In this document: piece by piece, positions 2-49,529 of the stretch
How the letters are laid out: each line of letters starts with the position of its first letter
Numbering within the stretch: position 1 is the stretch's first letter
From: Bacteroidota bacterium
GTDB taxonomy: Bacteria; Bacteroidota; Bacteroidia; AKYH767-A; OLB10
Direction of reading: 5' to 3'
Assembly (NCBI GenBank): GCA_016713525.1
Contig: JADJOZ010000007.1
Span: 19,969 to 83,968 of the forward strand
DNA length: 64,000 nt
Translations under genes and position numbers: made by a program
The notes under the pieces: model-generated
The model's database searches: none
Told to the model about the DNA's origin: nothing
Seen by the model: the letters and a program-made list of their open reading frames with translations, nothing else

Positions 2-781
2 ACCTTAATTCCATATATCCCTGTAGATGGTATTCAGGATCGGATGTTATTCCTCTTACAGGAGGTGCTCCCACCCTACACGTTTGAAGCTGCCCGAACA
101 ACTATTGAAGATATCCTGAAGCAACCCAGAGGCGGATTACTTTCATTTGGTTTCTTGTTTGCGTTATATGTATCCACAAACGGTATCAATTCCTTAATTG
201 ATAGTTTTAATCAGAGCTACCACGGCATTGAAGTCAGGTCAGCATTTCAGCAACGGATGGTATCTGTGTACCTGACCATGATGCTTGCCATCATTGTGAT
301 ATTATCTATTGCTTTAATCGTCATAGCCGAAATTGCAACCAATTATTTAGAAACTAAAAACCTGCTGAATGCCGGTCCCCGTATTTTATTGCTTCAAACC
401 GGAAAATGGATCATCTTAATTGCCATGGCACTGTGTATGATATATTTCCTTTATTTCTTCGGTCCTTCCAAAAAAAATAAGCGTCCTTTTATCTCAGTTG
501 GCTCAGTTACTGCAACCATTTTATTAATAGCAACCTCTATCGGCTTCAATTACTTTATTGCCAACTTTAGTCAGTATAATAAGCTTTATGGATCAATTGG
601 TACCCTGATCGTAATCCTGATCTGGATCAATTTCAACTCACTTCAACTGATAATTGGATTCGAGTTGAATGCCTCCATTGAAAATGCAAAGCGTTCAAAA
701 TCCGGTAAGAAAAAACTAATTCCCAGTGATCAAACTGGTAAAGATTCACCCGGAGATACTAAAATTTACCGGTCTATATAA
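2..781 (+). CDS. YihY/BrkB family inner-membrane protein; 5' end lies outside the window
   Basis: The frame is open from base 2. Multiple hydrophobic TM segments and a YihY-like motif (LLSFGFLFALYVSTNGIN) are present, and the C-terminal tail is lysine-rich. Confidence 0.65.
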   Translation, partial: TLIPYIPVDGIQDRMLFLLQEVLPPYTFEAARTTIEDILKQPRGGLLSFGFLFALYVSTNGINSLIDSFNQSYHGIEVRSAFQQRMVSVYLTMMLAIIVILSIALIVIAEIATNYLETKNLLNAGPRILLLQTGKWIILIAMALCMIYFLYFFGPSKKNKRPFISVGSVTATILLIATSIGFNYFIANFSQYNKLYGSIGTLIVILIWINFNSLQLIIGFELNASIENAKRSKSGKKKLIPSDQTGKDSPGDTKIYRSI

Positions 782-6559: not shown

Positions 6560-6853
6560 GGTGATATAGGTTTTTCAGGTTAAGGTTGCGGATCCGGGCA
6601 GCATCCTTGAATTGTGCATTCTTACGACCGACTGTTATAAAAGTTGCTGTTTTTATACGAAAAGGGTATTGACAAAGCCAATTCGTATCAAATTTTAAGC
6701 CTCCCATAAAAATTATAATTTACTGGTTTACAATAGCATAATAATAATTAAGCAAGAATTTATGCTATATATTAACTTTGTAAGAAAATCAACAGATTGA
6801 ATTAGAAATACAGAAAAAGAGCACAATAAAGACCTATTAAGCTGAATTGACCT

Positions 6854-6861
6854 TAGTTTTG
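6854..6861 (+). promoter_or_regulatory. Candidate Bacteroidota -7 promoter element (TAGTTTTG) upstream of the 6866 gene
   Basis: The sequence ttagttttgcaac atg matches the TAnnTTTG consensus a few bases before the start codon. There is also a TTG about 20 bp upstream (gaattgacc). Confidence 0.3.
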
Positions 6862-6865
6862 CAAC

Positions 6866-7645: not shown

Positions 7646-7743
7646 CTCATTATCGCTATCTATATACTTGATATTAAGAAGATTACCGATTATTGGCAAA
7701 CCCCAGGTTTTTTTCATAAGTTTGTATCCTAAACTATACAATC

Positions 7744-11072: not shown

Positions 11073-11081
11073 AAAATACAA

Positions 11082-12305
11082 ATGAGTTCAGTATATCAAA
11101 ATAAAATATCTTCTTGCAGAATCTGTGGTAGCAACCAACTTAAAACTGTAATTCATTTAGCTAAGATGCCATTCACTGATGAATTTATTTCAAGTGATCA
11201 ATTGGGAACTGAGTTTTTGAGCGACATAGATATTGCAGTTTGCAAACAATGTGCTTGTGCCCAAAATATTAATGATACTGATATGGGTGCATATTACCAG
11301 GATTACACTTATTCTGTACAATCATCTGGTTTTGCTTTAAGTTTCATGAGTACACTGGCAGAACGGATCAAATCCAATTATTTTTCCAACAAAACTGCTC
11401 CCTCAATGCTTGAAATAGGAAGTGGTACTGGAGAACAATTAATGGCATTCAAAAAATTAGGCTTTCGTGTAATTGGCGTTGAACCATCTGATAAACTTTC
11501 CGAATACGCCAATAGCCAGGAAATCAAAACATTAACAACTTTTTTTGACGAGAATACAACTCAGATTGTTGATCCGGAGTTCAGAACTGTTGATGCTATT
11601 GTTACAAGCTATACGTTCGATCATATTCCGAGACCAGTAGAGGTTCTGAATAATATTCATAAAATACTAAATGATGATGGTTTATTAATCATTGAAGTTC
11701 ATAATCTGGAGTTAATCAGACAACGAAATGAATTTTGTTTATTCGAACATGAACATTACACGTACTTGAACGAAAGAACTATGCGATATCTTTTGAATCA
11801 GAACAATTTTGATGTCGTAACTTTTAAACTATTAGAGGAAAGCGAAAAGAGAGCAAACTCCTTGTTAGTAGTTGCGAAAAAAGCAAATAAATCAAACATA
11901 AGTGAAGTTGATGTTTTAAATGAAATCCATTTGCTGGATTCATTAAATAACGAAATCAATAAATCAATTTCACGTATTGATAATTGGCTAAATGAAAATA
12001 AAAAATACAAAATTGTAGCATACGGTGCCGGTGGCAGAGGGATAATGACAATTGCTGCGTTGGCCAATTCAAATTATATTCAATATATTGTAGATAAAAA
12101 TCCGAAATCAGATAACATTTTTGCACCAAAATCACATCTTCCTGTATATGGCATTGAGAGATTAGCAGAAAATCGTGCTGATAAAATACTGATATTTAGC
12201 TTTGGATATTACAATGAAATAGTTTCAGAATTAACCTCAAAATTTGGGTATACCAAAGACCAGTTCATAAGCATTCTCGAACTATTAGAACCTGCCAATG
12301 CCTGA
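11082..12305 (+). CDS. NDP-hexose C-methyltransferase-like enzyme (N-terminal Zn-ribbon plus class I SAM methyltransferase plus C-MeTase C-terminal domain)
   Basis: CRICGS...CKQCAC zinc-ribbon, SAM motif LEIGSGTGEQL, and a ~400 aa length as in TylCIII-type sugar C-methyltransferases. Confidence 0.65.
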   Translation: MSSVYQNKISSCRICGSNQLKTVIHLAKMPFTDEFISSDQLGTEFLSDIDIAVCKQCACAQNINDTDMGAYYQDYTYSVQSSGFALSFMSTLAERIKSNYFSNKTAPSMLEIGSGTGEQLMAFKKLGFRVIGVEPSDKLSEYANSQEIKTLTTFFDENTTQIVDPEFRTVDAIVTSYTFDHIPRPVEVLNNIHKILNDDGLLIIEVHNLELIRQRNEFCLFEHEHYTYLNERTMRYLLNQNNFDVVTFKLLEESEKRANSLLVVAKKANKSNISEVDVLNEIHLLDSLNNEINKSISRIDNWLNENKKYKIVAYGAGGRGIMTIAALANSNYIQYIVDKNPKSDNIFAPKSHLPVYGIERLAENRADKILIFSFGYYNEIVSELTSKFGYTKDQFISILELLEPANA

Positions 12306-13180
12306 AATAATCATACATGGAGCATCTAGTTTTTTAGGCAAAGCATTTTGCCAGACGTCTTTATTCGAATAACATTCCATTTATTATTGTTGCCAGAAAC
12401 AAATCAGATTTATCTGTTTGGGAAAATTTGCAAGGCATCAAACTGCTCAGGTATAATAATTCAATAGGTGAAATCAATTTAAATATCGAATCATCTTCTA
12501 CATTCTACGAATTTTCCTGGCAGGGCGTATTTGGAGTCGACAGAAATGATCCTTCTCAAATTACAACTAACATTCCATTAATAATCTCTTCAATCGAATT
12601 CGCAAATAGAATTGGATCTAAACATTGGATTGGGATTGGCTCTCAAGCTGAATATGGAAATCTGGATAAGAAAATTTCTGAAAGTGATTTTTGTAATCCA
12701 ACAACATTGTATGGAAAATCAAAGCTAATTTCAGGTAATATATCAAAAGAATTGTGTAAGTCTTTTAATATGTAACATTCATGGCTACGATTATTCTCGG
12801 TTTATGGTCCAGATGACAATCATGAATGGCTGATTCAATATTTGATAAAAAAAATGCTGAAAAATGAGCCAATAGATGTAACCAAAGCAGAACAGATATG
12901 GGACTATCTATTTGTAGAAGACATTAGTGATTTACTATTAAAGTTATCAAATTCGGGAGGGGTCGGAATTGCAAATCTTGGAAGTGGAAATGGCATTGTA
13001 GTAAAAGAAATTATTAATATCATAAAAGACAAAACCGGCTCAAATTCAATCATTAATTTTGGAGCAATTCCATATCGGCCAGATCAAGTCATGAAAATGG
13101 AGGCCGATATCAAAAGCTCAGAGAACATACCGGATGGAGTCCGAATACAGACTTTGAAACAGGTATTCAGAAAACAATAA
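12298..13180 (+). pseudogene. NAD-dependent sugar epimerase/reductase (SDR family), disrupted by one frameshift (~12340) and one in-frame TAA (12773-12775)
   Basis: MPEIIIHGASSFLGK continues as HFARRLYSNNIPFIIVARNK in the +1 frame. The catalytic LYGKSKL motif is present. Then ...KSFNM*HSWLRLFSVYGPDD has a stop in the same frame just before the conserved RLF.VYGP motif. Confidence 0.6.
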
Positions 13181-13211
13181 ATTCATTAATGGTTAAGAAC
13201 TGAAATATTTA

Positions 13212-14007
13212 ATGACGAAAACTAACACTATAGCTAAAAATATCCGTCGTTCCATACTACAGATGAATCATAGATCAAATGCATCGCATTCCGGATCTGC
13301 CCTGTCAATAGTTGAGTTGTTGACTGTATTATACTTTAAGTACTTAAACATCGACCCGAAAGAGCCGAAAAATGACAAAAGGGACAGATTTATTCTAAGC
13401 AAAGGACACGCTAGTAGTGCATTATATTCGGTATTAGCTGAAAAGGGCTTTTTTTCCAAAAACATATCTTGACAAATTTTACATTGATAACGGGATCCTT
13501 CCCGGACATGTCGATAAAGATGCTGCTCCTGGCTTGGAATGTGCTGCAGGTTCATTAGGTCATGGACTTTCAATTGGTGTAGGCATGGCAATTGCATCTA
13601 AATATAAAAAACACAATTCGAAAGTTGTAGTTTTGATCAGCGATGGTGAATTAAATGAAGGATCAATTTGGGAGCCACTACTTCTTGCCCCTCATTTAAA
13701 TCTAAATAATCTGACTGTTATTATAGATTATAACAAAATACAGAGCTTCGGCCTTACTAATGAAATTGTAAATCTCGAACCTCTAAGCGATAAACTAATC
13801 GCATTTAATTGGGATGTTTTTGAAATTGACGGACATAACTTTGAAGAAATAGAAACGGCGTTGAATTCCAAATCCTCAAAACCCAAAATTATAATTGCAC
13901 ATACCATCAAAGGGAAAGGTGTAAGTTTTATGGAAAACAAGCTTGAATGGCATTATAGATCTCCTAATGATGAATTACTCAAGAAAGCGTTGGCAGAATT
14001 AAAGTAA
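13212..14007 (+). CDS. Transketolase, N-terminal (ThDP-binding) subunit; frameshift near 13458-13470
   Basis: ...LSKGHASSALY then ...GSLGHGLSIGVGMAIA and ...LISDGELNEGSIWE. The ORFs 13212..13472 and 13534..14007 are joined by sequence continuing FFSK/YLDKFYIDNGILPGHVDKDAAPGLECAAGSLGHG in the alternate frame. Confidence 0.75.
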
Positions 14008-14032
14008 TAAATAAATAAGGCACTGCTTAGTC

Positions 14033-14952
14033 ATGAGAAAAACGTTTATAAATACACTAGTCGAACTGGCAAGAAAAGACAAAAGAATTTTCTTAATAAC
14101 ACCAGATATAGGATATTCGGTTTTGGAACCTTTCATGCATGAATTTCCTGAACGCTATCTTAATGTCGGAGTTGCTGAACAGAATGCAGTTTCCATTGCA
14201 GCAGGACTTGCTTTAAGTGGTTTGATTCCGTATGTATATACAATTATGCCATTTGTAGCCATGCGTCCATATGAGCAAATCAGAGTTGATGTTGCATATA
14301 TGAACACAAATGTAAGAATAATTGGAGTTGGTGCTGGTTTTTCATATGGAGCTGCCGGTGCAACTCACATTCTATTGAAGATATTGCAATTATGAGATGC
14401 ATGCCAAATATGACAGTAATCTGTCCGGGAGATCCGTGGGAAGTAGAACAATCGATAATTGCATCCCAAAGCTATGAAGGACCTATGTTTTTCAGACTAG
14501 GCAAACAAGGTGAACCCAACATCAATTCTAATAAATCCAAATTTAAAATTGGTAAAGGGATTACAATAAAAAAGGGTAGTGATTTACATATCATCACCAC
14601 CAGTAATACTCTTGAAATGAGTAATGAGATCTGTGAATTATTGAAGAAAAAAAATCTATCAGCATCATTGATAAGTATGCATACCATAAAACCATTAGAC
14701 ACACGACTGATCAATTCCTTACTTAAGACCAATAAACCTATTTTCACTATTGAGGAACATAGCAGAATTGGAGGATTGGGGTCAGCAGTGGCTGAGATCA
14801 TAGCTGAATCAAAATTCCATCCGGTTTTTAAACGATTTGGTCTCGACGATCAGTTTTCTCACTATGTGGGATCACATTCTTTTATAAAAGAAAAGTATGG
14901 ATTGACTATTCCAATAATAACAAGCAAAATTCTAAAATCAATTTTAAACTAA
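14033..14952 (+). CDS. Transketolase, C-terminal (pyrimidine-binding) subunit; frameshift near 14365
   Basis: GVAEQNAVSIAAGLALSG and GAAGATH followed by HSIEDIAIMRCMPNMTV in the +1 frame. ORFs 14033..14395 and 14392..14952 form one protein. Confidence 0.75.
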
Positions 14953-14954
14953 TT

Positions 14955-15712
14955 ATGGCAAAGAAAAAAATAGAAATAAAAAGAAATATTTCAAATAGAG
15001 AAATTAGTCAACGAGAACACTTTTTACAATTGTTCAAACAAACTCCAATTCCTGATGAAGAAATTCAATTAAACTTAGGTTTATATATCAATCGACAAAA
15101 CTTATCTAGAATAATATTCATGCATGAGTTATACAAGAAAATAATTAACACTACAGGTATTGTAATTGAACTCGGATGTAGATGGGGACAAAATTTGGCT
15201 CTGTTTCAATCTTTTAGAGGAATGTATGAGCCATACAATTATAATAGGAAAATTGTAGGATTTGATTCGTTTGAAGGCTTCAAATCTATTCACAAAAAAG
15301 ATGGAAAAGCATCAATAGTTTATGAAGGTGCTTATGCCGTCACTTCAAATTATGAGGAACATCTTGACAAAGTTCTTGCACATCATGAAACTGAAAGTCC
15401 AATATCTCACATTAAAAGTATGAAATCATTAAGGGAGATGCAACCAAAACACTCGAAGCATACTTAAATACTAATCCCGAGACCATTATAGCTCTAATAT
15501 ATTTTGATTTTGATATCTATGCACCCACTAAAAGATGTTTAGAACTAATAAAAAATCATATTACAAAAGGTACTGTCATTGGATTTGATGAATTAAACTG
15601 GCATGATTACCCTGGAGAAACATTGGCATTAAACGAAGTTTTTTGGTTTAGACAAATATGCAATACACAGATCTCCCTTTGCCCTACTCCATCGTACATC
15701 GTAATTGATTAG
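14955..15712 (+). CDS. TylF/MycF-like class I SAM-dependent O-methyltransferase; frameshift near 15415
   Basis: IVIELGCRWGQNLALF SAM-binding region. The alternate frame continues IIKGDATKTLEAYL...VIGFDELNWHDYPGETLALNE, which is typical of the TylF family. Confidence 0.55.
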
Positions 15713-15726
15713 ATTTCAAGGTTAAC

Positions 15727-16820: not shown

Positions 16821-16944
16821 ATTTTGACTACAAAAAATATTTCTTCTTTGTTAATTATGCGATAATCCCAAAATAGATGATAAGAGCAACTTTACATTCC
16901 CCTAATTACATCATTTAAAATCGCCTCTCAAGCTTTAATAATAA

Positions 16945-19927: not shown

Positions 19928-20032
19928 GCTTCCTAATTGAATTGATTCACCCTCACAAATAGTTTTATCAATTCCGGCAGCAGCACTGGGAACTGGACTA
20001 AAATTAAGATTGAAAGCGACTTTTATTAATCC

Positions 20033-33591: not shown

Positions 33592-34329
33592 ATGGCTTCA
33601 ATCGTACGTCGGATGATTTTCACGTTTGAAAAGCATTTAAGAGATTCTTATACCATAGTTGCTGTTGATCTCATATTTCATGGCAAAACTCTTCTGGCAG
33701 ACAGTTTTTCAACTAAAGGACTTTTTACAATGGATAATTTAGAAGAATTGATTCGAGCAATTCTTAAAAATGAAAATAAAGAGCAATTTTCGGTAATGGG
33801 CTACAGTTTTGGAGGCAGGCTGGCGATGAATTGCATCCTTCTATTTCCGGATAAGGTAGATAGCCTGATACTGATTGCATCCGATGCATTAAGATGGAAT
33901 CCGGGCTATTATTTTGCTACCAAAAGCTTAATTGGAAAGACCATTTTCCGGCTGATGACCAATAATCCGGACTTTGTGGTTTCCATTCTTGGTTTCTTAA
34001 GCGCGATCAGTTTAATACATCCAAAAGCTTTTGAATTTTATAAGAACCAGCTATCTTTTCAACCTGTGCGACAAAAAATTTATGATGTGTGGATGGCGCA
34101 CAGGAATATGGTTCCTGATATTTCATTGATGCAGAAAAATATAAATAAGTTCCATATTCAAGTACTGCTGATTTTTGGTGCACATGACAGAATTATCCCG
34201 GCAAGGGCGGGAAAGAAACTTATCAGAAGTTTAAAGAAAAATGCACGGGAAGTTATCATAGATGCAGGGCATCGTGTTATTGAAAAAAGCCAAGCTATCA
34301 GTGAAGAAATATGGAATCATTTAAAATGA
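33592..34329 (+). CDS. Alpha/beta hydrolase; its N-terminus (...TGTKLLIAFHGFNRTSDDF) lies in another frame upstream, about 33530..33620
   Basis: GYSFGGRLAM nucleophile elbow. The upstream alternate frame carries the oxyanion HGF motif, implying a frameshift near 33615. Confidence 0.6.
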   Translation: MASIVRRMIFTFEKHLRDSYTIVAVDLIFHGKTLLADSFSTKGLFTMDNLEELIRAILKNENKEQFSVMGYSFGGRLAMNCILLFPDKVDSLILIASDALRWNPGYYFATKSLIGKTIFRLMTNNPDFVVSILGFLSAISLIHPKAFEFYKNQLSFQPVRQKIYDVWMAHRNMVPDISLMQKNINKFHIQVLLIFGAHDRIIPARAGKKLIRSLKKNAREVIIDAGHRVIEKSQAISEEIWNHLK

Positions 34330-34369: not shown

Positions 34370-36307
34370 TCATTTTTTATTTTTATAATCGGATAAGTTT
34401 TTGGTGGCTGCAATTTTATTATCAGAGAATATAGTAATCAAATAGGAACCAGCCTGTAGTCGGTCGAGGGGCATGGTAAAAGTGCTGTTACTGAATAATG
34501 GGTTAACAATTTGTGCCACTGTTCTGCCTGCAAGATCTGTTATAACAAGAGAAGTAATTTCAAGTTCTGATCCGGTCTTTATAGTGATCTGATCACCTGC
34601 AGGATTAGGATAGAACATAAAATCGTTGGCTTCAAGTTCATCTAAACCAACACCTGTACAGTTGATTTGAGATGTGATCGTTTTTACGCAAACACCATTG
34701 TCAATCAAGAATTCCAGGTTCACAAATCCGGTACTACCAACACACGAAAATGTATCGCCAGCAACGGGTGCTCCACCATTGACAATATGAGAAACCGTAT
34801 AGGTAACTAAACCGGTCATCGGACAACCAGTCATGTCCAACACTGCCTGATTAGTGCCAACATTAACAATCGCACAGGAAGAAACATCCTGAAACACGCT
34901 ATTTATGATTGCATTGGATGTATCATCAGTACATTGTGTAGGGAAGACCTGAATACTGAAGTGTACAATTTCAGATGTTGGAGCAAGGGAGAAGAATATT
35001 GTAAAATTGAGAGTTCCGATTAGTGGAGTACCGGGATCAGGAACAAACTGATTGGGAAAACCGGCAGCGACTAAATCGGGAACAGATTGAGCACCTACCT
35101 GGTTAAAAAACTCATCATAAAATACTGCATTAAATCCTATACGGGTTGAAGGATCGTTTGTAAAATCAACAGGCACAGCATATACTACAGAATCGAAGGC
35201 ACAAATAGAATCGGCGGATGCAAATGTAAGCGGTCCGGTAATAACTGCACAATTAATGGCTACGGGGCCGTCCCATCTGAACATGGGTGCATTTAATTCA
35301 TTGGACCCTGTCCAGCCAATTTCTGCTGCAATAAATTCTATATCTGAATGGATTAAATTATCGGCAGAATACCAGGTATCGCCATCATCCAAAGTAAATG
35401 CAGTACCACCTCCGGCTTGTGGTGAAGAAAGAAAATATGTTGAGGCCGTTCCGGGAACAAATGTTAAGACCTTTGTTAAAATATTAGCAGTATTTGTTGC
35501 AACCAAACTCCAGGTGGCACCGCCATCTGTGGTACGAATAACATCGGAAAGTGCCGGACCAGGGCTTCCATTACTTGCAATACCATTTAATGCATCTTTG
35601 AAAGCAATATCGCCAATATATGAACCTGTATATGGTGTTGATGCAACAGTCCAGTTCAAACCACGATCAATGGTTTTATAAATACGCCCCAAATTAGTTC
35701 CGAACCAAAGCGTACTATCACCATGCGCAGTATAAACACTGGTAATTCCAAATTCACCTGATAGTTGCGGAGCAATATTTGCCTGCGGAGTTCTTTCCCA
35801 GTCATTACCACCATCCGAAGTAGTATATATTTCAAAGTATCCGGCATTCGGATCTCCCATGCAAATGCCATTGTTGGCATCAAAAAAGTAAACAATATTA
35901 GGGAAACCTGCTGGAGCAGCAAAAACTGCTGAATCCTGACTTTGCCAATTCACACCACCATCAATAGTTTTCATAATTTTTCCCCCACCACCAGTAGCAT
36001 AGAACATAACAGCCCAGGCAGTGTCTGCATTCAGTCCAAAAATTCCGGATGGACATAATCCGGCAGCATTATTTATGGGTCCTGCAATCCATAAATTACC
36101 CCCATCGATTGTCTTAGTGAACTCTTGAACGGGAGCCAATTGATTTGTTGGGTCGGCAGCTATTGCCCAAACAACACTGGTATCGACAGCATCAATAAAC
36201 TGAGCAAAGCGGTTTGCTGATAAATTAGAAGGTTGCGCGACCCATTGAGCCGTAGAAGCAAACGAGATGACACTTAGGATTGCTACAAGTAGTATATTTT
36301 TTTTCAT
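34370..36307 (-). CDS. Secreted BNR/Ycf48-like beta-propeller protein with a T9SS C-terminal sorting domain
   Basis: Signal peptide. Multiple S/T-x-D-G-G-x-x-W BNR motifs (TIDGGNLW, TIDGGVNWQ, TSDGGNDWE, TIDRGLNWT, TTDGGATWS, LDDGDTWY). C-terminal ...FYPNPAGDQITIK...ITDLAGRTV...GSYLITIF. Confidence 0.7.
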   Translation of the reverse strand: MKKNILLVAILSVISFASTAQWVAQPSNLSANRFAQFIDAVDTSVVWAIAADPTNQLAPVQEFTKTIDGGNLWIAGPINNAAGLCPSGIFGLNADTAWAVMFYATGGGGKIMKTIDGGVNWQSQDSAVFAAPAGFPNIVYFFDANNGICMGDPNAGYFEIYTTSDGGNDWERTPQANIAPQLSGEFGITSVYTAHGDSTLWFGTNLGRIYKTIDRGLNWTVASTPYTGSYIGDIAFKDALNGIASNGSPGPALSDVIRTTDGGATWSLVATNTANILTKVLTFVPGTASTYFLSSPQAGGGTAFTLDDGDTWYSADNLIHSDIEFIAAEIGWTGSNELNAPMFRWDGPVAINCAVITGPLTFASADSICAFDSVVYAVPVDFTNDPSTRIGFNAVFYDEFFNQVGAQSVPDLVAAGFPNQFVPDPGTPLIGTLNFTIFFSLAPTSEIVHFSIQVFPTQCTDDTSNAIINSVFQDVSSCAIVNVGTNQAVLDMTGCPMTGLVTYTVSHIVNGGAPVAGDTFSCVGSTGFVNLEFLIDNGVCVKTITSQINCTGVGLDELEANDFMFYPNPAGDQITIKTGSELEITSLVITDLAGRTVAQIVNPLFSNSTFTMPLDRLQAGSYLITIFSDNKIAATKNLSDYKNKK

Positions 36308-37452: not shown

Positions 37453-38106
37453 TTACAATTTGTGTTCAGAATTTTTCATTATTTGATAAAGAAACTCTCT
37501 AGCCCGGAAGAGTTGTGCTTTCACGGTTCCGAGAGGTAATTGTAGTTCATCAGCAATTTCTTCGTAAGAGCGTTCCTGAAAATACCTGAGTTCCACTAAT
37601 TTTTTATAGCGGGGTTTCAGTCTTTCCACAACATCGCGCATCATCATCACCTTTTGCTTCTTCATCATATTCTCTTCAGGATCCGGCTGATTCGATTTGA
37701 TATCAATGGTTAATTCACCACCATCATCTGTTTCAAGACCTTTATCAATAGAGAATGTTTGCTTTCTTTTCTTACGGATAAAATCGATGCAATTGTTTGT
37801 AGCGATTTTGAAAAGCCAGGTACTGAAAGCGTAATCAGGAGTATATTGCTTTATATTTTTGAAAGCTTTTCCAAAAGCCTCAATGGTAAGATCATCGGCA
37901 TCATCCCGGTTGTTCACCATTTTCAGCAACATAAAGTATATTGAATCTTTATAACGGGACATCAGTTCGGCATAAGCCTTCTGGTCACCGCTATCGATGG
38001 CATTGCGAACCAACTGATAATCTTTGAGCGCTTTATCGCTCAGATTCGGATTTATCTTTGAAGGAACCGATTCATCACTGGTAGTAGTATCCTGATTTAT
38101 TTCCAT
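37453..38106 (-). CDS. RNA polymerase sigma-70 factor, ECF-like
   Basis: Region 2 (FSTWLFKIATNNCIDFIRKK) and region 4 HTH (SYEEIADELQLPLGTVKAQLFRAR). Confidence 0.75.
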   Translation of the reverse strand: MEINQDTTTSDESVPSKINPNLSDKALKDYQLVRNAIDSGDQKAYAELMSRYKDSIYFMLLKMVNNRDDADDLTIEAFGKAFKNIKQYTPDYAFSTWLFKIATNNCIDFIRKKRKQTFSIDKGLETDDGGELTIDIKSNQPDPEENMMKKQKVMMMRDVVERLKPRYKKLVELRYFQERSYEEIADELQLPLGTVKAQLFRAREFLYQIMKNSEHKL

Positions 38107-39315: not shown

Positions 39316-40445
39316 ATGAAATTCCGGCTTTTGCTGAAGACCCGGGAAGTAAAGCCAGAGCCGGAGAAATAACAACCGATCATGGCACCATTCCCACCCC
39401 TATTTTTATGCCTGTTGGAACCGCCGGTTCTGTAAAAAGCGTGCATCAGAGGGAATTAGTCAATGATATTGATGCCAAAATAATTTTAGGAAACACCTAT
39501 CACCTCAATCTCAGACCAAGCACTTCCATTCTGCAACAGGCTGGCGGATTGCACAAATTTATGGGTTGGGAACGACCGATTTTGACCGATAGTGGTGGAT
39601 ATCAGGTTTATTCGCTTGCCGCAAACCGAAAAATAAAGGAAGAAGGTGTACACTTCCGGTCTCATATAGATGGATCAAAACACTTTTTATCGCCTGAAAC
39701 TTCTATGGAAATTCAGCGGGTAATTGGTGCCGATATCATTATGGCATTTGATGAATGTACACCATTCCCGTGTGACCACAGAACCGCTAAAAAATCGATG
39801 GAAATGACCCATCGTTGGTTAACCCGATGTTGTGAATATGTTGATAACATGTCGCCACTTTATGGTCACAGTCAGGCACTTTTTCCGATTGTTCAAGGAA
39901 GTGTTTACAAAGATCTCAGAGCACAGTCAGCAGAAGTAATTGCATCTGCTAACCGGGAAGGCAATGCCATCGGAGGATTATCGGTTGGTGAACCGGCAGA
40001 AGACATGTATGAAATGACAGATTTGGTTTGTAGCATTTTACCAAAAGATAAACCCCGGTATTTAATGGGAGTTGGAACTCCTGTTAATTTACTCGAATGT
40101 ATAGCACTGGGAATCGACATGTTTGATTGTGTAATGCCTACACGCAACGCCCGTAATGGCATGTTATTTACAAGCGAAGGTTTCATCAACATCAGAAATG
40201 AAAAGTGGAAAGACGACTTCTCTCCAATTGATGCTCAGGGAAATTGCTTTGCCGACACCCAATATTCCAAAGCTTATCTTAGACATCTCATCATATCAAA
40301 AGAAATATTAGGTGCTCAAATTGCAACCTTACATAATCTTTCATTTTATTTGTGGTTAGTTAGAGAGGCCAGAGTTCGCATTATTGAAGGCACATTTGCA
40401 AGCTGGAAAAATGTGATGGTTAAAAAACTGGCTCAAAGGATATGA
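39316..40445 (+). CDS. tgt: Queuine tRNA-ribosyltransferase; the N-terminal 13 codons (MKFRLLLKTREVKPEPEK) are in a different frame from the body, with a frameshift near 39350
   Basis: ARAGEITTDHGTIPTPIFMPVGTAGSVKSV...LTDSGGYQVYSL...CxCxxC-like Zn site CDHRTAKKSMEMTHRW. The track ORF starts at the internal Met 39408. Confidence 0.85.
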
Positions 40446-41233
40446 GAACCTCCGTCAAAATATTGGATGCATACATTATAAAGAAGTTCCTTTCAACTTT
40501 CTTTTTTGCATTGGGATTGATTATCCTGATTGCCATTGTATTTGATATTTCAGAGAAAATCGATGACTTTTTGGAAAAGAAAGCCCCATTAGAGTCAATA
40601 ATTTTCGATTATTATTTGAATTTTATCCCCTATTTCGCTAATCTTTTCAGTCCGCTATTCATTTTCATCTCAGTTATTTTCTTTACTTCAAAAATGGCAA
40701 GCCAGACAGAAATTGTTGCCATATTATCGAGTGGGATCAGCTTCAGAAGATTGTTAGCACCATACATGGTTGTTGCGGCCATCATTGCCAGTTTGTCTTT
40801 TTATCTCAATGGTTGGGTGATACCTCATTCCAATGAAACCCGTCTGGCATTCGAAAATACCTACATCAAAAATCCATATGTTTTAAAAACCAGAAATATT
40901 CATCGTCAGATAAATCCTGGACAATTTATTTATTTTGAAAGTTACAATACATTGGATGATATAGGATACCGTTTTTCCTATGAAAAATTCGATAATGGCA
41001 AGCTATTGTATAAAATGAATGCGGAAAGATTGGTCTGGGACACAGTCAAAACAGTATGGAGAGCCGAAACCTTTACCATCCGCGAAATTGATGGTATGAA
41101 AGAGAAACTCAGAATTGGTGTGGCACTTGATACCACTTTTTCCTTTTATCCGGAAGAATTCAACCGAAGGGAGAACAACATTCAAACTATGGATATGAAT
41201 GAACTGGAAACATACATTCAGGATAAAAAATGA
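40442..41233 (+). CDS. LptF/LptG (YjgP/YjgQ) family LPS export permease, N-terminal part. Joined to 41230..41529 across an A6 run (41225-41230).
   Basis: MRTSVKILDAYIIKKFL...SSGISFRRLLAPY... typical of LptF/G. There is a periplasmic beta-jellyroll middle section. Confidence 0.7.
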   Translation: MRTSVKILDAYIIKKFLSTFFFALGLIILIAIVFDISEKIDDFLEKKAPLESIIFDYYLNFIPYFANLFSPLFIFISVIFFTSKMASQTEIVAILSSGISFRRLLAPYMVVAAIIASLSFYLNGWVIPHSNETRLAFENTYIKNPYVLKTRNIHRQINPGQFIYFESYNTLDDIGYRFSYEKFDNGKLLYKMNAERLVWDTVKTVWRAETFTIREIDGMKEKLRIGVALDTTFSFYPEEFNRRENNIQTMDMNELETYIQDKK

Positions 41234-41598: not shown

Positions 41599-41608
41599 AA
41601 CAGCTTTT

Positions 41609-42040: not shown

Positions 42041-42054
42041 GTTTAAGTATAGAA

Positions 42055-42474: not shown

Positions 42475-42578
42475 AAAATCTAAATTTGTGCTGAATTACA
42501 GTTAATTCGACAACGGACACTAAATTACGAAACATTCTGTTAAAGTAATTTGTTTCTTCGTGTTATTAATAAATCTAT

Positions 42579-45014
42579 ATGAAACATACTTTTAAACTCC
42601 TGATCTTCTGGCTTCTATTCATTTATTCAGTTCCTGCAACAGCATTTCCAGGGCCAAAAGCATCGGATAATGGCACCATTAAAGGTAAAACGGTAGATAG
42701 CAAAACCAGAGAGCCACTTCCTTTCGTGAATATTATTGTTCTGGGAACATCTGTTGGAACTACATCGGATGCCACCGGTTCCTTTATTTTGAAAAATGTA
42801 AAACCGGGTTATGTAAAACTCGGTGCTTCAAGCGTTGGCTATAAATCTTTCACTTCCGCCGACATATTCGTTACCAATGAAAAAGTTCCTTTCATTGAAA
42901 TTGCTTTGGAACCTACAACAGCTGATCTTAAGGAAGTAGTTATTTCAGGACCACAATTTGTCAAGAGAGAAGAGAGTCCGGTTTCTCTTCAAACAATTGG
43001 CATTCGTGAAATTGAAAGGAACCCCGGAGGCAACAGAGATATCTCCAGAGTTATTCAATCTTTACCCGGAGTTGCATCATCACCCAGTTTCAGAAATGAT
43101 ATAGTCATCAGAGGCGGTTCTCCTTCAGAGAATAAGTTTTACCTTGACGGGATGGAAGTTCCTATTATTAATCATTTTCAAACACAGGGATCGACCGGTG
43201 GACCCGTTGGTATTATAAATGTGGATCTGGTAAGAGAGGTAGACTTTTATTCAGGCGCATTCCCAGTGAATAAAGGGAACACCTTAAGTTCGATAATGGA
43301 ATTTAAACTCCTGGAAGGAAATCAGGAAAAGACCGGATTCAGGGGTACCGTTGGTTCATCTGACTTGGGATTTACAATTGATGGACCGATTACTTCAAAA
43401 ACAAATTACATAGTTTCTGTCAGACGATCCTATTTACAATTTTTATTTGAAGCCCTTAAATTACCTTTTTTACCAACCTACACCGATTTACAATTTAAAG
43501 TGCGGCATAAGATTAATGAACGAAATGAAATAATTTTTCTGGGTATTGGCGCATACGATCAATTTAAACTGAATACCAATGTTAACGATAATGTGGATGA
43601 TGCCGAACAATTAGAGTATAACAATTATTTGCTGGGAAATATTCCAACCAATAATCAGTGGAATTACTCAACCGGAGCAATTTACAAACACTTTGGCAAA
43701 AACAGTTTAACTAATGTGGTGCTGAGCAGAAGCACCTTGAATAACAGTTCAGAAAAATTCAGGAACAACAATGAAAATGTGGCTACTGATCAGATTTTCG
43801 ATTATGAATCTGAAGAAACAGAGAACAAATTCAGGGTTGAAAATAATTTATCGAAAGGAACCATGAAAGTATTAAGTGGTTTTAGTTTAGAATATGCCGA
43901 TTATTTTGTAAAAGGCTTCGACAATATTAACACTTCATCCGGACCGGTAAAAAGATCCTACAATTCATCATTAAATGTTTTCAAATACGGACTTTTTGTA
44001 TCGGTTTCAAAGCCGGTATTTAAAAACCGATTAGCCTTGGCAATAGGCATTCGAACAGATGCAACAGATTATTCCGCTCAAATGAATAATCCCGCTAAAC
44101 AACTTTCACCCAGATTCTCAGCATCCTGGTCCTTTAATGAAAAATGGAGCTGGAATTTTAATACAGGGCGTTACTACCAGCTTCCCTCCTATTCTATTTT
44201 AGGTTTCAGTGATGCATCAGGAAATCTAATTAATAAAGCCAATAAACTAAAATACATTTATAATGACCATCTGGTAACCGGAATTCAATTCCTGCCTGAT
44301 GCATCTTCTAAAATTACTTTAGAAGGATTTTATAAAAAGTACAAGAATTACCCTTATTCTTTAACTGATTCTATTAGCCTGGCAAATCTGGGTTCCGACT
44401 TTGGTGTGGTTGGAAATGAATCAGTGAACTCTTCATCCAAAGGAAGAGCTTATGGCATTGAATTATTGCTGCAGCGACGTTCTGCAACCGGTATATACGG
44501 GATCATGGCTTATACATTTGTGCGTAGTGAATTTACCGGCGACAATGCGAATTACATTCCATCAGCATGGGATAACAAACATTTACTCACACTTACAGCA
44601 GGAAAAGAATTTGGGAAAAACTGGGAAATGGGAATTAAATGGCGTTATGTAGCCGGCAGACCATATACACCTTATGATGTTCCAGCTACATCATTGAAAA
44701 CAAACTGGGATGTCAGAGGTCAGGGAATATTGGATTACACCTTATTAAATACCGAACGACTTGCAGCTTTTCATCAGTTGGATCTACGTATTGACAAAAA
44801 GTGGTTCTTCGACAAATGGTCGATTAATTTATATCTGGATCTACAGAATGTTTATGCCTTTAAAGCTGAGAACCAGAATATAATTAATGTCAGAACAGAT
44901 TCAGAAGGAAAGTTCATTACTGACCCTGAAGATTCAAACCGGTATTTAATATATTATATTAAAGATGAATCAGGAACGGTGTTACCCTCCATCGGTGTTA
45001 TAATTGATTTTTAA
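42579..45014 (+). CDS. TonB-dependent receptor-like outer-membrane beta-barrel with an N-terminal carboxypeptidase-regulatory-like domain
   Basis: Signal peptide. GTIKGKTVDSKTREPLPFVNIIVLGTSVGTTSDATGSF is CarbopepD_reg-like. Plug-like region. The C-terminus ends in aromatic residues (...IIDF). It is 811 aa. Confidence 0.65.
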   Translation: MKHTFKLLIFWLLFIYSVPATAFPGPKASDNGTIKGKTVDSKTREPLPFVNIIVLGTSVGTTSDATGSFILKNVKPGYVKLGASSVGYKSFTSADIFVTNEKVPFIEIALEPTTADLKEVVISGPQFVKREESPVSLQTIGIREIERNPGGNRDISRVIQSLPGVASSPSFRNDIVIRGGSPSENKFYLDGMEVPIINHFQTQGSTGGPVGIINVDLVREVDFYSGAFPVNKGNTLSSIMEFKLLEGNQEKTGFRGTVGSSDLGFTIDGPITSKTNYIVSVRRSYLQFLFEALKLPFLPTYTDLQFKVRHKINERNEIIFLGIGAYDQFKLNTNVNDNVDDAEQLEYNNYLLGNIPTNNQWNYSTGAIYKHFGKNSLTNVVLSRSTLNNSSEKFRNNNENVATDQIFDYESEETENKFRVENNLSKGTMKVLSGFSLEYADYFVKGFDNINTSSGPVKRSYNSSLNVFKYGLFVSVSKPVFKNRLALAIGIRTDATDYSAQMNNPAKQLSPRFSASWSFNEKWSWNFNTGRYYQLPSYSILGFSDASGNLINKANKLKYIYNDHLVTGIQFLPDASSKITLEGFYKKYKNYPYSLTDSISLANLGSDFGVVGNESVNSSSKGRAYGIELLLQRRSATGIYGIMAYTFVRSEFTGDNANYIPSAWDNKHLLTLTAGKEFGKNWEMGIKWRYVAGRPYTPYDVPATSLKTNWDVRGQGILDYTLLNTERLAAFHQLDLRIDKKWFFDKWSINLYLDLQNVYAFKAENQNIINVRTDSEGKFITDPEDSNRYLIYYIKDESGTVLPSIGVIIDF

Positions 45015-45041
45015 GTAACAAACAATTCATATAAAACTGAA

Positions 45042-45077
45042 AAAGGCGGAAGAAAAACTCTTCCGCCTTTTCGGTTT
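45042..45077 (+). terminator. Rho-independent terminator after the receptor gene
   Basis: ggcggaag-aaaaact-cttccgcc stem-loop followed by ttttcggttt. Confidence 0.7.
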
Positions 45078-45555
45078 ATGCAATAATTTTATTGTTTTAC
45101 AAAGGCTGAACGCACTTCACTTCTTCCTGCATTTAAGAAAACTGACATGATTAGTAGTAGTTTTTTCATGAGTTTAGAATTAAGTTATATTAAAGGTTTA
45201 CTTCACAAATATAGCCAAATTTTAAATTATTAGTATCAGAATTGTGTCATCAAAAAGTGTTTCTAAGTAGCTATTTTTCAGATCATTGTCATTATCATGT
45301 AAATTACCTTATTCTAAAAGCAATGATGACTTGTATAAAAATGAATAGTTGTGCCACAAATATGTAAGGTACCAAAGTATTGATAATAGAGGGTTTCAGC
45401 ATATGCAGGGTCTGTTAAACAGCCGAAACAGCTTTTTTGAGATTCACCATAGTATGGAACAGACATGTATACTTATCAGGAAACTTGATTTGCAATACGC
45501 ATCCCATCAGAAGTACTTTTAACATCAAACAGGCGCAAGCCACAAAACCACATAC

Positions 45556-46764
45556 ATGAAAGCGCTCGAAAAAATTTGTCTGACTCTGATTAGCTTACTC
45601 GTAACTAATTATGCTTTTTCACAATCTTCATGTGCACCTACTACTGCACAGTCTGACCTCGACATCAACAATGTTCGCACAACAATTTTAGTTGGTGGTG
45701 ACATGTGGTGGGATCTGACTAGTCCCAAATATGAAATTCCGAAAGGCAGCAATAAACATTCCTTGTATGCCGGATCACTTTGGATTGGAGGCATTGATGC
45801 CGGTGGACAAATTAAAGTTGCAGCACAAACCTATCGCCAATCCGGAACTGATTTCTGGGGTGGCGCTATCGATACTGTGCAGATTGGTATTTCAGCTTCT
45901 AAATGTCTGCAATATGACAGACATTGGAATGTTTCAAAAACAGAGGTGCAGGATTTTATAAATGATCCAACAACAGCAACTAATGATATTAAAAGCTGGC
46001 CGGGTAATGGAGATCCAACATCAAATGAAGGAACATATTTAGCACCATTTGTTGATGTAAATGGTGATGGCACCTATGATTATACCGATGGCGATTATCC
46101 GGGATATAATTTCAGCGGAGTTTATCCTGCTGCACCTGGAACATGTAAAACCGTATGCAATGATTATCTTTTTGGAGACCAGACTATCTGGTGGGTTTTC
46201 AATGATGTAGGTAATATTCATGGTACAGGCTCCGATCCTATTGGTCTCGAAATACGTGCACAGGCATTTGCATTCCAAACCAATGATGAAATAAATAACA
46301 TGACCTTTTATAAATACCAAATTATAAATCGTTCAACAAATACCCTGACCCAAACCTATTTTGGCCAATGGGTTGATCCTGATCTGGGTAACTCTATTGA
46401 TGATTATGTTGGTTGTGATGTTGGCAGAGGACTTGGTTTCTGTTATAATGGTGATGCTGATGATGAAACAGCATCAGGTTATGGTATTAATCCGCCGGCT
46501 GTCGGTGTCGACTTTTTTCAGGGGCCACTAGCTGATATGCTTGATAATATCGATAATGATAAAGATGGCTGTGTTGATTGTACTTTTTGTACCGATTCAG
46601 CAGGAGTTGTTTCTGTTATTCCAGATGATGTTTTGCGTGAACAAATTATCATGTCTAAATTCATGAAATATGACAATGTCAACAATTCTCCGATAGGAAA
46701 CCCGAATGGATTCACTGATTTTTACAACTACCTCCAGGGCATTTTCTCGATGGTCAACCTATGA
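45556..46764 (+). CDS. Large secreted T9SS cargo protein, N-terminal part (signal peptide, Ca-binding-like DxNGDGxxD motif). Forms one gene with 46761..49529 after a frameshift near 46743-46746.
   Basis: MKALEKICLTLISLLVTNYAFSQ signal peptide. DVNGDGTYDYTDGD motif. The other frame continues ...FLDGQPMTYGGNGHD. The N-terminal domain family was not recognised. Confidence 0.6.
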   Translation: MKALEKICLTLISLLVTNYAFSQSSCAPTTAQSDLDINNVRTTILVGGDMWWDLTSPKYEIPKGSNKHSLYAGSLWIGGIDAGGQIKVAAQTYRQSGTDFWGGAIDTVQIGISASKCLQYDRHWNVSKTEVQDFINDPTTATNDIKSWPGNGDPTSNEGTYLAPFVDVNGDGTYDYTDGDYPGYNFSGVYPAAPGTCKTVCNDYLFGDQTIWWVFNDVGNIHGTGSDPIGLEIRAQAFAFQTNDEINNMTFYKYQIINRSTNTLTQTYFGQWVDPDLGNSIDDYVGCDVGRGLGFCYNGDADDETASGYGINPPAVGVDFFQGPLADMLDNIDNDKDGCVDCTFCTDSAGVVSVIPDDVLREQIIMSKFMKYDNVNNSPIGNPNGFTDFYNYLQGIFSMVNL

Positions 46765-49529
46765 CTTATGGCGGTAATGGTCACGACCCCGGAAACCCGG
46801 TTTGCGACTATATGTTTCCCGGCGATACAGATCCTTTGTTCCCAGGTCAGAACTGGACAGAAGCAACTGCAAATAATCCTGTTGGTGACCGCAGATTCAT
46901 TCAATCGGCAGGAGTATTTACTTTGGAACCGGGTGCTGTAAACTATGTCACTACAGGAGTGGTGTGGGCGCGTGCAACAACCGGCGGGCCACAGGCAAGT
47001 ATTGGTTTGCTAAAAGCGGCAGATGACAAAGCACAGGCTCTTTTTGACAATTGCTTTAAACTTATTGATGGACCCAATGCCCCTGATTTAGCTGTTAGAG
47101 AGCTCGACAAAACAATTATTCTCACACTTACAAATACCAATGTTCCTGAAATAGAAAAGTATGTGGCTAAAGATCCTACCATCACCGGATTTCCCGATTC
47201 ATTGACCTACTTTAAATTTCAAGGCTATCAGATATTTCAGTTCAAAGATGAAACTGTTACTGTTGCAGACATAGGCAATCCTGATAAAGTAAGATTAGCC
47301 GCACAATGTGATATTAAGGACGGAATAAGCCAGCTCGTTAACTTTTATTATGAACCCACTCTGAATGCAAATATGCCGATTGAACAAGTAAATGGAAGCG
47401 ACAAAGGTATTACACATACCTTCCTTATTAAACAGAATTTATTTGCCACCGGAAATACTGCATTGATAAATCACCAAACTTATTTCTTTACGGTGGTTGC
47501 CTACGCACATAATAATTACAAAACATACGACCCAAGTGATCCATTTCAGTTAGATGGTCAGAAAAAACCATATTTATCTGGAAGAAACAACATTAAAACG
47601 TATTCTGCAATACCTCATATCCCGAGTGTGGAAAATATTGGAACCATATTACATACCCAATTCGGTGACGGACCTCCTGTAAAAAGAATGGAAGGTAGTG
47701 GAAACGGAGGTATGATCGTTGATTTCACTGAAGCAACTGTTGATGAAATATTAAGTCCCCCCTATTACCGTTCGTTTCAACCTGTTTACAAATCCTTGAA
47801 AGCTCCGGTTAAAGTGAAGGTGTTTGATCCAATGATTATTGATCCATTACAGTATGAAATCAGATTTGATACAATCAGTCCTAATGCTAATTACACACTA
47901 TCATCAAGTGACCAGTCTTTGATCGTGAACTCCGATTACAATATTGCTACGTCAGATGAACTTGTGGTTCCTGAATGGGGTCTCACCTTCCAGGCTTCTA
48001 CTTGCATTGAACCCGGCGACACTCTGGATCCAAAAAATGGCTATCTGGAAAGTTCTATTGAATTTAATAATGAATCTGCAAAATGGTTGTCTGCTGTTGC
48101 TGATGTCGACAATATCGGAGGTGATCCAAAAGATTGGATCAGATCCGGGACTGCTTCAAATGATCCTTATAAAAAAGAGGATGATAAGGAAGTATATGAA
48201 AATGTTGTCAATGGTACCTGGGCTCCGTATAAGTTGGTTTCAAGAGATCCATTTCACCCGAGAATGGGAAATCTTGGTGAAGTAAATATCAGCTTATCAC
48301 CTAATGAGGATACTAAAACAGCAATCAATAGTATTGATGTGATATTTACCGCAGACCAGTCGAAATGGACACGTTGTGTTGTAGTTGAAACCGGAAATCA
48401 GGCAGCTTTAAATATTGGTAATGCCAAACAGTTTGATCTCAGAAAATCAGCATCAATGGGGAAAAATGGAGAGCCCGATAATTCAATCAATTCAACTGGA
48501 ATGAGCTGGTTTCCGGGATATGCATATGATGTTGAAACCGGTGTAAGGTTGAATATTGTCTTTGGCGAAAATTCTTCATTGATTGAAGATAATTCGCAGG
48601 ATATGAAATTCAATCCTACTTCAAGAATTTATGATAATTCCGGTAAAATTGTATTAGGTGGTATGCATTTTATTTACATCATGGGGCATAATGGTGATGG
48701 AGAAACTGATGTACCGCCCTACGATTCATGCCGATATATTTTCAACAAACTCAATACATTGAATTCTACCGATAAAAGAACTGTTTGGAAACATGCTATG
48801 TGGACAAATATTCCACTAGTAACAAGTGATTATGAATCACTCAACCTGCCGGTTGAAATACCTTCCGATGTAAAAGTGAGAATTCGTATAGCCAGAAATT
48901 ACAAACCTATGGCCGGCACAACCGAATTAAGGTATACCGATATTCTTTCAATTGGAACTACCTATTATGTTTCAAAACCTCCGATAACACATAATGGTAT
49001 CACTTATGAATTTACAGGACAAAGCTTTGTTGCTACCACATCTCAATTTGAAGGTCCGGGACGGGTAACTGACCAGATTCCGGCAAACAATTTTATGCCA
49101 TTGTTCACCTTTGGAACAGAGAATCTGGCATCTGAAACTAACAATCAGGAAATTGCTTCGGAAGCACTTCGCTTAATTAATGTTGTTCCGAATCCATATT
49201 ATGCTTACTCAGCTTACGAAAAAAGCCAGCTTGACAACCGGATAAAGATTACCAACTTACCTGCAAAATGTAAAGTAACTATTTTATCTCCGAACGGTAC
49301 TATAATCAGAAAATTCGAAAGGGATGTTCCTACTGATAATACTGCCGGAACTGTGGTTTCGCCGAAATCCATTAATACCGACACAACAATTGACTGGGAT
49401 TTAAAAAACTTAAAAGGTATTCCGGTTTCGGGTGGTATGTACTTAATTCACGTTGATGCTGGTGTACTCGGAACAAAAACAATTAAATGGTTCGGAATAT
49501 TGCGACCAATTGATTTAGATACGTTCTGA
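46761..49529 (+). CDS. Large secreted T9SS cargo protein, C-terminal part, ending in a type-A T9SS sorting domain
   Basis: C-terminal ...LINVVPNPYYAYSAYEKSQLDNRIKITNLPAKCKVTILSPNGTIIRKFE...GMYLIHVDAGVLGTKTIKWFGIL. The combined product is about 1320 aa. Confidence 0.65.
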   Translation: MTYGGNGHDPGNPVCDYMFPGDTDPLFPGQNWTEATANNPVGDRRFIQSAGVFTLEPGAVNYVTTGVVWARATTGGPQASIGLLKAADDKAQALFDNCFKLIDGPNAPDLAVRELDKTIILTLTNTNVPEIEKYVAKDPTITGFPDSLTYFKFQGYQIFQFKDETVTVADIGNPDKVRLAAQCDIKDGISQLVNFYYEPTLNANMPIEQVNGSDKGITHTFLIKQNLFATGNTALINHQTYFFTVVAYAHNNYKTYDPSDPFQLDGQKKPYLSGRNNIKTYSAIPHIPSVENIGTILHTQFGDGPPVKRMEGSGNGGMIVDFTEATVDEILSPPYYRSFQPVYKSLKAPVKVKVFDPMIIDPLQYEIRFDTISPNANYTLSSSDQSLIVNSDYNIATSDELVVPEWGLTFQASTCIEPGDTLDPKNGYLESSIEFNNESAKWLSAVADVDNIGGDPKDWIRSGTASNDPYKKEDDKEVYENVVNGTWAPYKLVSRDPFHPRMGNLGEVNISLSPNEDTKTAINSIDVIFTADQSKWTRCVVVETGNQAALNIGNAKQFDLRKSASMGKNGEPDNSINSTGMSWFPGYAYDVETGVRLNIVFGENSSLIEDNSQDMKFNPTSRIYDNSGKIVLGGMHFIYIMGHNGDGETDVPPYDSCRYIFNKLNTLNSTDKRTVWKHAMWTNIPLVTSDYESLNLPVEIPSDVKVRIRIARNYKPMAGTTELRYTDILSIGTTYYVSKPPITHNGITYEFTGQSFVATTSQFEGPGRVTDQIPANNFMPLFTFGTENLASETNNQEIASEALRLINVVPNPYYAYSAYEKSQLDNRIKITNLPAKCKVTILSPNGTIIRKFERDVPTDNTAGTVVSPKSINTDTTIDWDLKNLKGIPVSGGMYLIHVDAGVLGTKTIKWFGILRPIDLDTF

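Follow-up and report, generated by a model that had tools for sequence, protein, structure and literature searches.

Split genes in a 64-kb window of an activated-sludge Bacteroidota genome are very probably residual long-read consensus errors

Results

The stretch of DNA analyzed here, called the window throughout, comprises 64,000 nt of contig JADJOZ010000007.1, from a metagenome-assembled genome (MAG) of an uncultured Bacteroidota species of activated sludge (GTDB order AKYH767-A, family OLB10; MiDAS genus midas_g_283). Between positions 766 and 49,529, where lesions were examined, it carries genes for a PKD adhesin, a polysaccharide cassette, a CHU_C/PKD protein, asnB, a hexapeptide transferase, wecB, a glycosyltransferase (GT4), an alpha/beta hydrolase, tgt, lptF/lptG and proteins related to the type IX secretion system (T9SS), many of them broken into adjacent open reading frames (ORFs). 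A preliminary description had counted at least 15 genes split by frameshifts. All the genes it listed are indeed split as described, and its number is an undercount: a single nonsense substitution and no fewer than 27 small indels disrupt 17 genes, and three of these genes as well as several further lesions were missing from its list. The split genes are real in the deposited sequence, yet we consider it very likely (probability about 0.93) that they are residual consensus errors of long-read, nanopore-type sequencing in a wastewater MAG of low coverage.

The splits were examined by profile searches against Pfam and NCBIfam, by three-frame reading at the junctions and by DNA alignment with conspecific contigs. 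Adjacent same-strand ORFs sit exactly where the splits had been placed, and the profile coordinates continue from one fragment into the next. The first fragment of the epimerase covers positions 13-161 of the Epimerase profile (PF01370) and the second 166-227; the N-terminal transketolase subunit matches Transketolase_N at 4-78 and then 94-259, and the C-terminal subunit Transket_pyr at 5-122 and then 122-170, followed by Transketolase_C. The same succession was found for asnB (GATase_7, 1-80 then 79-122), wecB (Epimerase_2, 7-169 then 183-346) and lptF/G (LptF_LptG, 2-256 then 267-352). For the GT4, GT2 and methyltransferase junctions, three-frame reading indicated that the protein carries on in another frame at short A runs. 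Since profile matches and reading frames both run on across the junctions, the splits are real features of the window sequence.

Conspecific sequence spans nearly the whole window. It consists of seven sibling MAGs of the GCA_0167xxxxx series, GCA_964269775 and many short-read contigs (MEGAHIT, SPAdes, Logan and JGI), all 98.8-99.3% identical to the window. Ten syntenic 20-kb loci came from an exact-protein look-up with the extracytoplasmic function (ECF) sigma factor (37453-38106); seven of them are within this identity range and three belong to a species about 86% identical. A genome scan with asnB returned contigs of another species (about 86-88% identical) and one distant match, which were used for the asnB site only, and a metagenome scan with the GT2 gene returned a single contig of 3.2 kb, highly informative for that region. 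At the 24 indel sites that we curated and at the substitution at 12773, the window differs from all or nearly all comparators, in which the genes are intact. Counting the lesion sites with a comparator of the same haplotype, each site is intact in 2 to 11 independent conspecific sequences, including MEGAHIT k141, SPAdes NODE, Logan and JGI contigs.

The preliminary description had proposed a comparison with full-length homologs, and every affected gene is a single ORF in conspecific genomes. The lengths in relatives, in amino acids (aa), are 1979 for the PKD adhesin, 301 for the epimerase, 264 and 304-306 for the transketolase subunits, 252 for the methyltransferase, 364 for GT2, 418 for a Kelch/T9SS protein, 998 for the CHU_C protein, 607 for asnB, 326 for the hexapeptide transferase, 385 for wecB, 437 for GT4, 274 for the alpha/beta hydrolase, 641 for a BNR/T9SS protein, 376 for tgt, 362 for LptF/G and 1324 for a large protein. 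To repair the window, 24 indels and one substitution were then edited to the state found in conspecific genomes, which restored 16 full-length ORFs of the sizes annotated in relatives, namely 1979, 301, 264, 306, 252, 364, 418, 607, 326, 391, 437, 274, 641, 376, 362 and 1324 aa, the 391-aa wecB ORF corresponding to 385 aa from the annotated start. Three further edits gave one continuous frame of 941 codons for the CHU_C gene.

The 24 curated indels are the basis of the following statistics; three lesions in the CHU_C gene make up the rest of the 27. Sixteen of them lie in true runs of at least 4 bases, against a background of 9.4% of bases (p=1.4e-11), and 13 in runs of at least 5 bases, against 4.0% (p=1.2e-12). 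The true tract lengths at the lesions range between 1 and 7 nt, with a median of 5, and 16 of the 24 indels are deletions. The ratio of private indels to private substitutions is 24:105 in the window versus 0:74 in the short-read contigs (Fisher p=1.5e-5). These contigs do carry strain variation, as shown by their 74 private substitutions, with zero indels.

Private indels, meaning those confined to a single genome where three or more genomes cover the site, amount to 3.1 per 10 kb in the window. The seven GCA_0167xxxxx MAGs carry 0.9-8.6 per 10 kb, at other positions than the window, and GCA_964269775 carries 0.22. None was found in 36.6 kb of MEGAHIT contigs of ERZ27275390, and no genuine one in 82 kb of other short-read contigs, where the sole two events flank a scaffold N-run. 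Three of the seven sibling MAGs are confirmed as Nanopore R9.4.1 MAGs. The error load thus follows assembly technology and coverage, not phylogeny.

The wecB gene illustrates this dependence. Its 90% cluster contains at least five genomes with an intact gene of 385 or 390 aa, and the gene is broken at three different places in three long-read MAGs (228+167, 317+66 and 337 aa). The fragments from the window are identical to the deposited proteins MBK7968909.1 (167 aa) and MBK7968910.1 (228 aa), and the middle fragment of its CHU_C gene is identical to IPK08_08190, encoded on a 481,510-bp contig labelled 'MAG: Bacteroidetes bacterium'. We also observed that the artefactual fragments at 25080-26256 and 20036-20668 stand as separate GenBank entries, clustered beside the intact 385-aa wecB.

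The lesions were located to the base against these comparators. The PKD adhesin gene (minus strand) is split at 2616-2619, where the window reads G4 and relatives G3 (+1; 2 comparators), exactly the run named in the preliminary description. A second, new frameshift in this gene, T5 instead of T4 at 6571-6575 (+1; 8 comparators), cuts off about 44 N-terminal residues.

The next affected genes are encoded on the plus strand. The epimerase gene has two indels that had not been listed, A3 instead of A2 near codon 15 at 12340-12342 (+1; 9-11 comparators) and A4 instead of A5 in the C-terminal region at 13112-13115 (-1; 9 comparators). Between them lies an in-frame TAA at 12773-12775, due to a substitution, which reads CAA in five genomes and GAA in four. 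At 12773 the population is split between C and G, encoding Gln or Glu, and the window has a third base, T, which creates the stop; here the consensus error stands exactly at a polymorphic position. The gene of the N-terminal transketolase subunit is split at 13449-13455 (T7 instead of T6, +1; 9 comparators), and that of the C-terminal subunit at 14366, outside any homopolymer, where a single C replaces CC (-1; 8 comparators).

In the 252-aa methyltransferase gene, called TylF-MT in the preliminary description, A4 replaces A5 at 15414-15417 (-1; 6 comparators). It also has a compensating pair, T6 instead of T5 at 15639-15644 (+1), which was missing from the earlier list, and C3 instead of C4 at 15675-15677 (-1), a new lesion of which the Nanopore MAG GCA_016703655 has the same error. 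At codon 6 of the GT2 gene (15740-15744), the window reads A5, and the Illumina contig L024 and two MAGs read A6 (-1); A5 also occurs in GCA_016716985 and GCA_016721705.

The gene of the 418-aa Kelch / Por_Secre_tail protein was not in the earlier list and has five lesions. Near its start, C4 replaces C3 at 16899-16902 (+1), and a TC is absent at 16950-16951 (-2), outside any homopolymer. Further along, A5 replaces A6 at 17383-17387 (-1), as also in GCA_016721705, and A5 replaces A7 at 17428-17432 (-2); these two together scramble about 15 codons without a stop. Lastly, an ATA is absent at 17524-17525 (-3, in frame), which could be an error or a real variant.

Downstream, on the minus strand, the CHU_C/PKD protein gene has one extra base at 20031-20033 (C3 instead of C2 on the plus strand), one base lost at 20083-20084 (C2 instead of C3), and a net +1 frameshift placed to the interval 20648-20663. 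The first 154 residues of the protein are 100% identical to the intact 998-aa homologue, and the frame changes then, at 20648-20663. Its apparent in-frame TAG at 20033-20035 is the product of the -1/+1 pair at 20084 and 20033. Two of the breaks are thus more than the plain frameshifts that had been described: this stop arises from a pair of frameshifts, and the epimerase stop from a substitution. Selenocysteine insertion and stop-codon reassignment were considered for these two stops and ruled out, because 12773 has TAA against CAA/GAA in relatives and 20033 derives from the paired frameshift.

Still on the minus strand, asnB is split at 22663-22665 (A3 instead of A4, -1; 7 comparators, and 2 from another species), and the 326-aa hexapeptide transferase, absent from the earlier list, has an altered C-terminus following T4 instead of T5 at 23496-23499 (-1). 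At 25585-25590, A6 instead of A5 (+1) divides wecB into the 228-aa and 167-aa products. In the 437-aa GT4 gene, a +1 event at the edge of a T6 run (27456-27462) detaches the first 26 codons. The 274-aa alpha/beta hydrolase (plus strand) has lost its N-terminus through CAC instead of CACAC, a dinucleotide repeat, at 33622-33624 (-2; 11 comparators), and the last residues of the 641-aa BNR / Por_Secre_tail (T9SS) protein (minus strand) are altered by T5 instead of T6 at 34398-34402 (-1; 11 comparators), a new lesion.

On the plus strand, tgt (376 aa) is hit at codon 6, with T4 instead of T5 at 39329-39332 (-1; 7 comparators), and lptF/lptG (362 aa) is split at 41225-41230, with A6 instead of A7 (-1; 7 comparators). 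In the gene of the 1324-aa protein, the window has T4 at 46742-46745 instead of the T5 of the four genomes that share its local haplotype (-1). For this lesion, the MAFFT placement at a CC dinucleotide was misled by two haplotypes, and the haplotype-matched comparison gave the T5 to T4 change. The preliminary description was right to place a split of its '1320 aa T9SS protein' at a T4 run, and its T9SS label is barely supported: the protein had no Pfam match, and the sole NCBIfam match was PorZ, with E=0.001 and 17.5 bits against a cut-off of 260. Several lesion coordinates also had to be revised, from about 22670 to 22663-22665 for asnB, about 25570 to 25585-25590 for wecB, 27466-27471 (T6) to 27456-27462 for GT4, about 33615 to 33622-33624 for the alpha/beta hydrolase, about 39350 to 39329-39332 for tgt, and 46743-46746 to 46742-46745 for the 1324-aa protein.

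The errors are unevenly spread. The interval 12.3-17.6 kb holds thirteen of the 24 curated indels, a density of 24.5 per 10 kb, compared with 0-3.2 in other parts (p=3e-8). Its density of homopolymers is unremarkable and does not account for the clustering. The cluster lies inside a strain-variable polysaccharide cassette (11077-17825), and GCA_016703655 and GCA_016706985 likewise concentrate their own private indels in it. The gene content of the cassette differs among strains: the window, several siblings and short-read contigs contain a methyltransferase, the epimerase, the split transketolase, a methyltransferase, GT2 and the Kelch gene, GCA_964269775 has another set (a DegT aminotransferase, a 3beta-HSD-type epimerase and a different methyltransferase), and GCA_016719045 differs again in its methyltransferase.

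Beyond the examined range, a corrupted stretch was found in a variable insert at 61280-62660. All four bases form homopolymers there, the longest of 18 nt (A15, T16, C13, G18, C16, G16). From 61.7 kb on, its GC content is 53%, and 44% of its bases lie in runs of at least 4, versus 8.8% elsewhere. The stretch is a degraded copy (75-88% identity, in three reading frames) of a region with a T9SS-cargo gene; in GCA_016715745 and GCA_016706985 the composition of this region is normal. The stretch appears to be unpolished sequence of raw-read quality, and its stretched homopolymers are consistent with Nanopore reads. Rfam and tRNA scans of the window gave no match, and the GC-rich 61-64 kb region is not rRNA. 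Directly upstream of the corrupted stretch, at 61540-61640, a unit of about 40 bp (…ccaccttncgacaagctcaaggcaagaatnaccaaa…) occurs as a tandem pair.

Other variation within the species was noted along the window. Two sharply different local haplotypes exist at 46699-46790, in the gene of the 1324-aa protein, and at 19750-20600, in the middle of the CHU_C/PKD gene, where the window lacks 156 nt relative to the other haplotype. Such haplotype pairs suggest mosaic or recombined surface-protein genes. Also, a gene of 320-327 aa (Cleaved_Adhesin / Por_Secre_tail) shows a presence/absence polymorphism at 45014-45556, with a breakpoint near 45143: it lies between a TonB-dependent receptor gene and that of the 1324-aa protein in several conspecifics, and is absent from the window, GCA_016719045 and GCA_016703655. 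Finally, the DUF3887 / alpha-beta hydrolase ORF at 56933-58255 is 440 aa long in the window versus 421 aa in all relatives, with no indel; a substitution private to the window at 58238, near the 5' end, may lengthen the apparent ORF.

Discussion

The preliminary description had proposed that sequencing indels, of 454, Ion or nanopore type, caused the ORF track to under-merge these genes. Our data bear this out, as the sites are intact elsewhere, the genes are repairable and the error load tracks the type of assembly. The fragments from the window share their accession and locus-tag series with the MAGs of Singleton et al. (2021), from which we infer that the window belongs to this data set and to its pipeline. 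These MAGs were produced from PromethION R9.4.1 reads with CANU, Racon, two rounds of medaka (r941_flip213) and one Illumina round of Racon (Singleton et al., 2021; PMC8012365). Thus, the MAG of the window is most likely an assembly of Oxford Nanopore R9.4.1 reads that received light polishing from Illumina reads at low coverage. In the same paper (Supplementary Data 3), the entries for the siblings JADJBQ, JADJIL and JADJUR place them in o__AKYH767-A, f__OLB10, midas_g_283, in one cluster at 95% average nucleotide identity, with Illumina coverages of 3.8, 7.9 and 5.9x and Nanopore coverages of 10.8, 11.2 and 15.2x, respectively (PMC8012365). By the coverages given in these entries, private indels are by a wide margin most numerous in the sibling with the lowest Illumina coverage (3.8x). 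Sereika et al. (2022) state that R9.4.1 consensus sequences keep frameshift-causing homopolymer indels, and that short-read polishing is required for bins below about 40x (PMC9262707).

A low-coverage R9.4.1 assembly with light Illumina polishing would leave residual consensus errors in place. On this reading, most of the lesions in the window are miscounts of short homopolymers by one base, deletions being twice as frequent as insertions; a few indels of two or three nucleotides and one or more wrong bases make up the rest. Each of them shifts or stops the frame, so that gene callers output two or more fragments per gene. The errors would be densest where the coverage of the assembled haplotype was lowest, that is in the cassette at 11.1-17.8 kb, in the variable middle of the CHU_C gene and in the insert at 61.3-62.7 kb, the last of which would have retained near-raw-read quality. 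In the cassette, each alternative gene set probably received part of an already low coverage, so that polishing would have failed there; low local coverage may in this way explain the clustering.

Several observations weigh against this explanation. Eight of the 24 indels, about a third, lie outside runs of at least 4 bases (at the edge of a run, in shorter runs of at most 3 bases, or in a di- or trinucleotide context), and eight are insertions. The association with homopolymers, which the preliminary description had presented as systematic, is real but partial. Three tracts (15740-15744, 17383-17387 and 15675-15677) are miscounted alike in two or three independent MAGs, which could reflect systematic error or real variation. 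The CHU_C gene is less certain than the others, as its middle region, of a divergent haplotype, is without a clean comparator of the same haplotype; a homologue search with its middle fragment returned only the window's own deposited fragment and an equally error-laden sibling. Also, the true tract lengths were deduced from other assemblies, not measured in reads of the sampled population.

The lesions might instead be genuine mutations, in a strain undergoing pseudogenisation and genome decay, or at least with an inactivated polysaccharide cassette. They are present in the deposited sequence and strongly clustered in one surface-polysaccharide cassette, and the 105 private substitutions mark the window as a distinct strain. 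Against this, at about 28 lesions per 49 kb a genome of some 5 Mb would bear roughly 2,000 of them or more. Such a load would break a large share of its genes and is hardly credible in a free-living bacterium. The lesions are private to a sequence 99% identical to intact relatives, they strike the essential lptF/G as well as tgt and asnB, and the fragments show no further decay, each gene being one to five single edits away from the intact form. Long-read siblings bear similar private lesions elsewhere in the cassette, whereas the short-read contigs of the cassette (L017, L024, L025, L033-L038) carry none, and the indel to substitution ratio is unlike the real variation of the population (p=1.5e-5). 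We exclude genome decay, to which we leave a very small probability, because of the platform dependence and of the one-edit repairability of the genes.

A similarly small probability attaches to the other option raised in the preliminary description, that some tract differences are slipped-strand phase variation, which would switch surface proteins and glycosyltransferases on and off. Several targets are surface-related (the adhesin, CHU_C, Kelch/T9SS, GT2 and GT4 genes), and two or three MAGs have the alternative length in common at 15740-15744 (A5/A6), 17383-17387 (A5/A6) and 15675-15677 (C3/C4). Contingency loci usually use longer tracts. The affected tracts in the window measure only 1-7 nt, and its genuine A8-A9 and T8 tracts keep a constant length in almost every genome. 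Cytoplasmic genes are struck equally; these and essential ones, such as tgt, lptF/G, asnB and the transketolase subunits, are hit as readily as those of surface proteins, and the alternative lengths are confined to long-read MAGs, the Illumina contigs always having the in-frame length. The compensating pairs within one gene (15639/15675 and 20033/20084) are typical of noise. For the few recurrent tracts taken by themselves, all three inside the strain-variable cassette, genuine switching of surface-glycan genes hidden among the errors is scarcely less doubtful. Programmed ribosomal frameshifting or stop-codon recoding, which would join the fragments in translation, seems more remote by far. 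Several junctions do stand at slippery-looking A/T-rich runs, such as the A6 at 41225-41230 and the T7 at 13449-13455. The directions are mixed (+1, -1 and -2), and 17 unrelated genes would each require their own signal. We exclude this mechanism because conspecific orthologues at 99% identity are each read in one frame, being longer or shorter than the window by a single base precisely at these junctions.

Residual consensus errors, which we retain as the explanation, have a close counterpart in the homopolymer indels of R9.4.1 assemblies (Sereika et al., 2022; PMC9262707). As in the window, these are one-base homopolymer miscounts with a bias to deletions, which leave adjacent gene fragments; their load is set by coverage and polishing, and the sibling MAGs that this pipeline yielded for the species have the same defect at other sites. 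The window differs from them in that about a third of its lesions lie outside runs of at least 4 bases, in that its errors are clustered in strain-variable segments and not evenly spread, and in its near-raw-read segment at 61.3-62.7 kb with stretched homopolymers. The likeness to phase-variable contingency loci is limited to mononucleotide runs at which the frame changes, in part within genes of surface proteins and glycosyltransferases. Unlike such loci, the window has short tracts and struck housekeeping genes, accurate assemblies show no length variation, and the long tracts are stable. Frameshifted genes are dense in the window, as they are in the pseudogene-rich genomes of recently host-restricted bacteria; in contrast to these, its genes are 1-5 point edits from intact, relatives at 99% identity are intact, and the defects are linked to the platform and not to the lineage.

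The frameshift pattern is therefore a known kind of assembly artefact, useful as a quality flag, and not a biological feature of this organism. The fragments are already public as separate proteins (MBK7968909.1, MBK7968910.1, IPK08_08190), and seed spurious short families. They make intact pathways look broken, among them lipopolysaccharide export, queuosine synthesis and the polysaccharide cassette, and the pattern in this MAG could be misread as genome decay or phase variation. The matter is one of data quality, not of biology. Still, the errors gather in strain-variable loci, where surface variation is most often studied, and such loci in low-coverage long-read MAGs call for extra caution or for frameshift-aware annotation.

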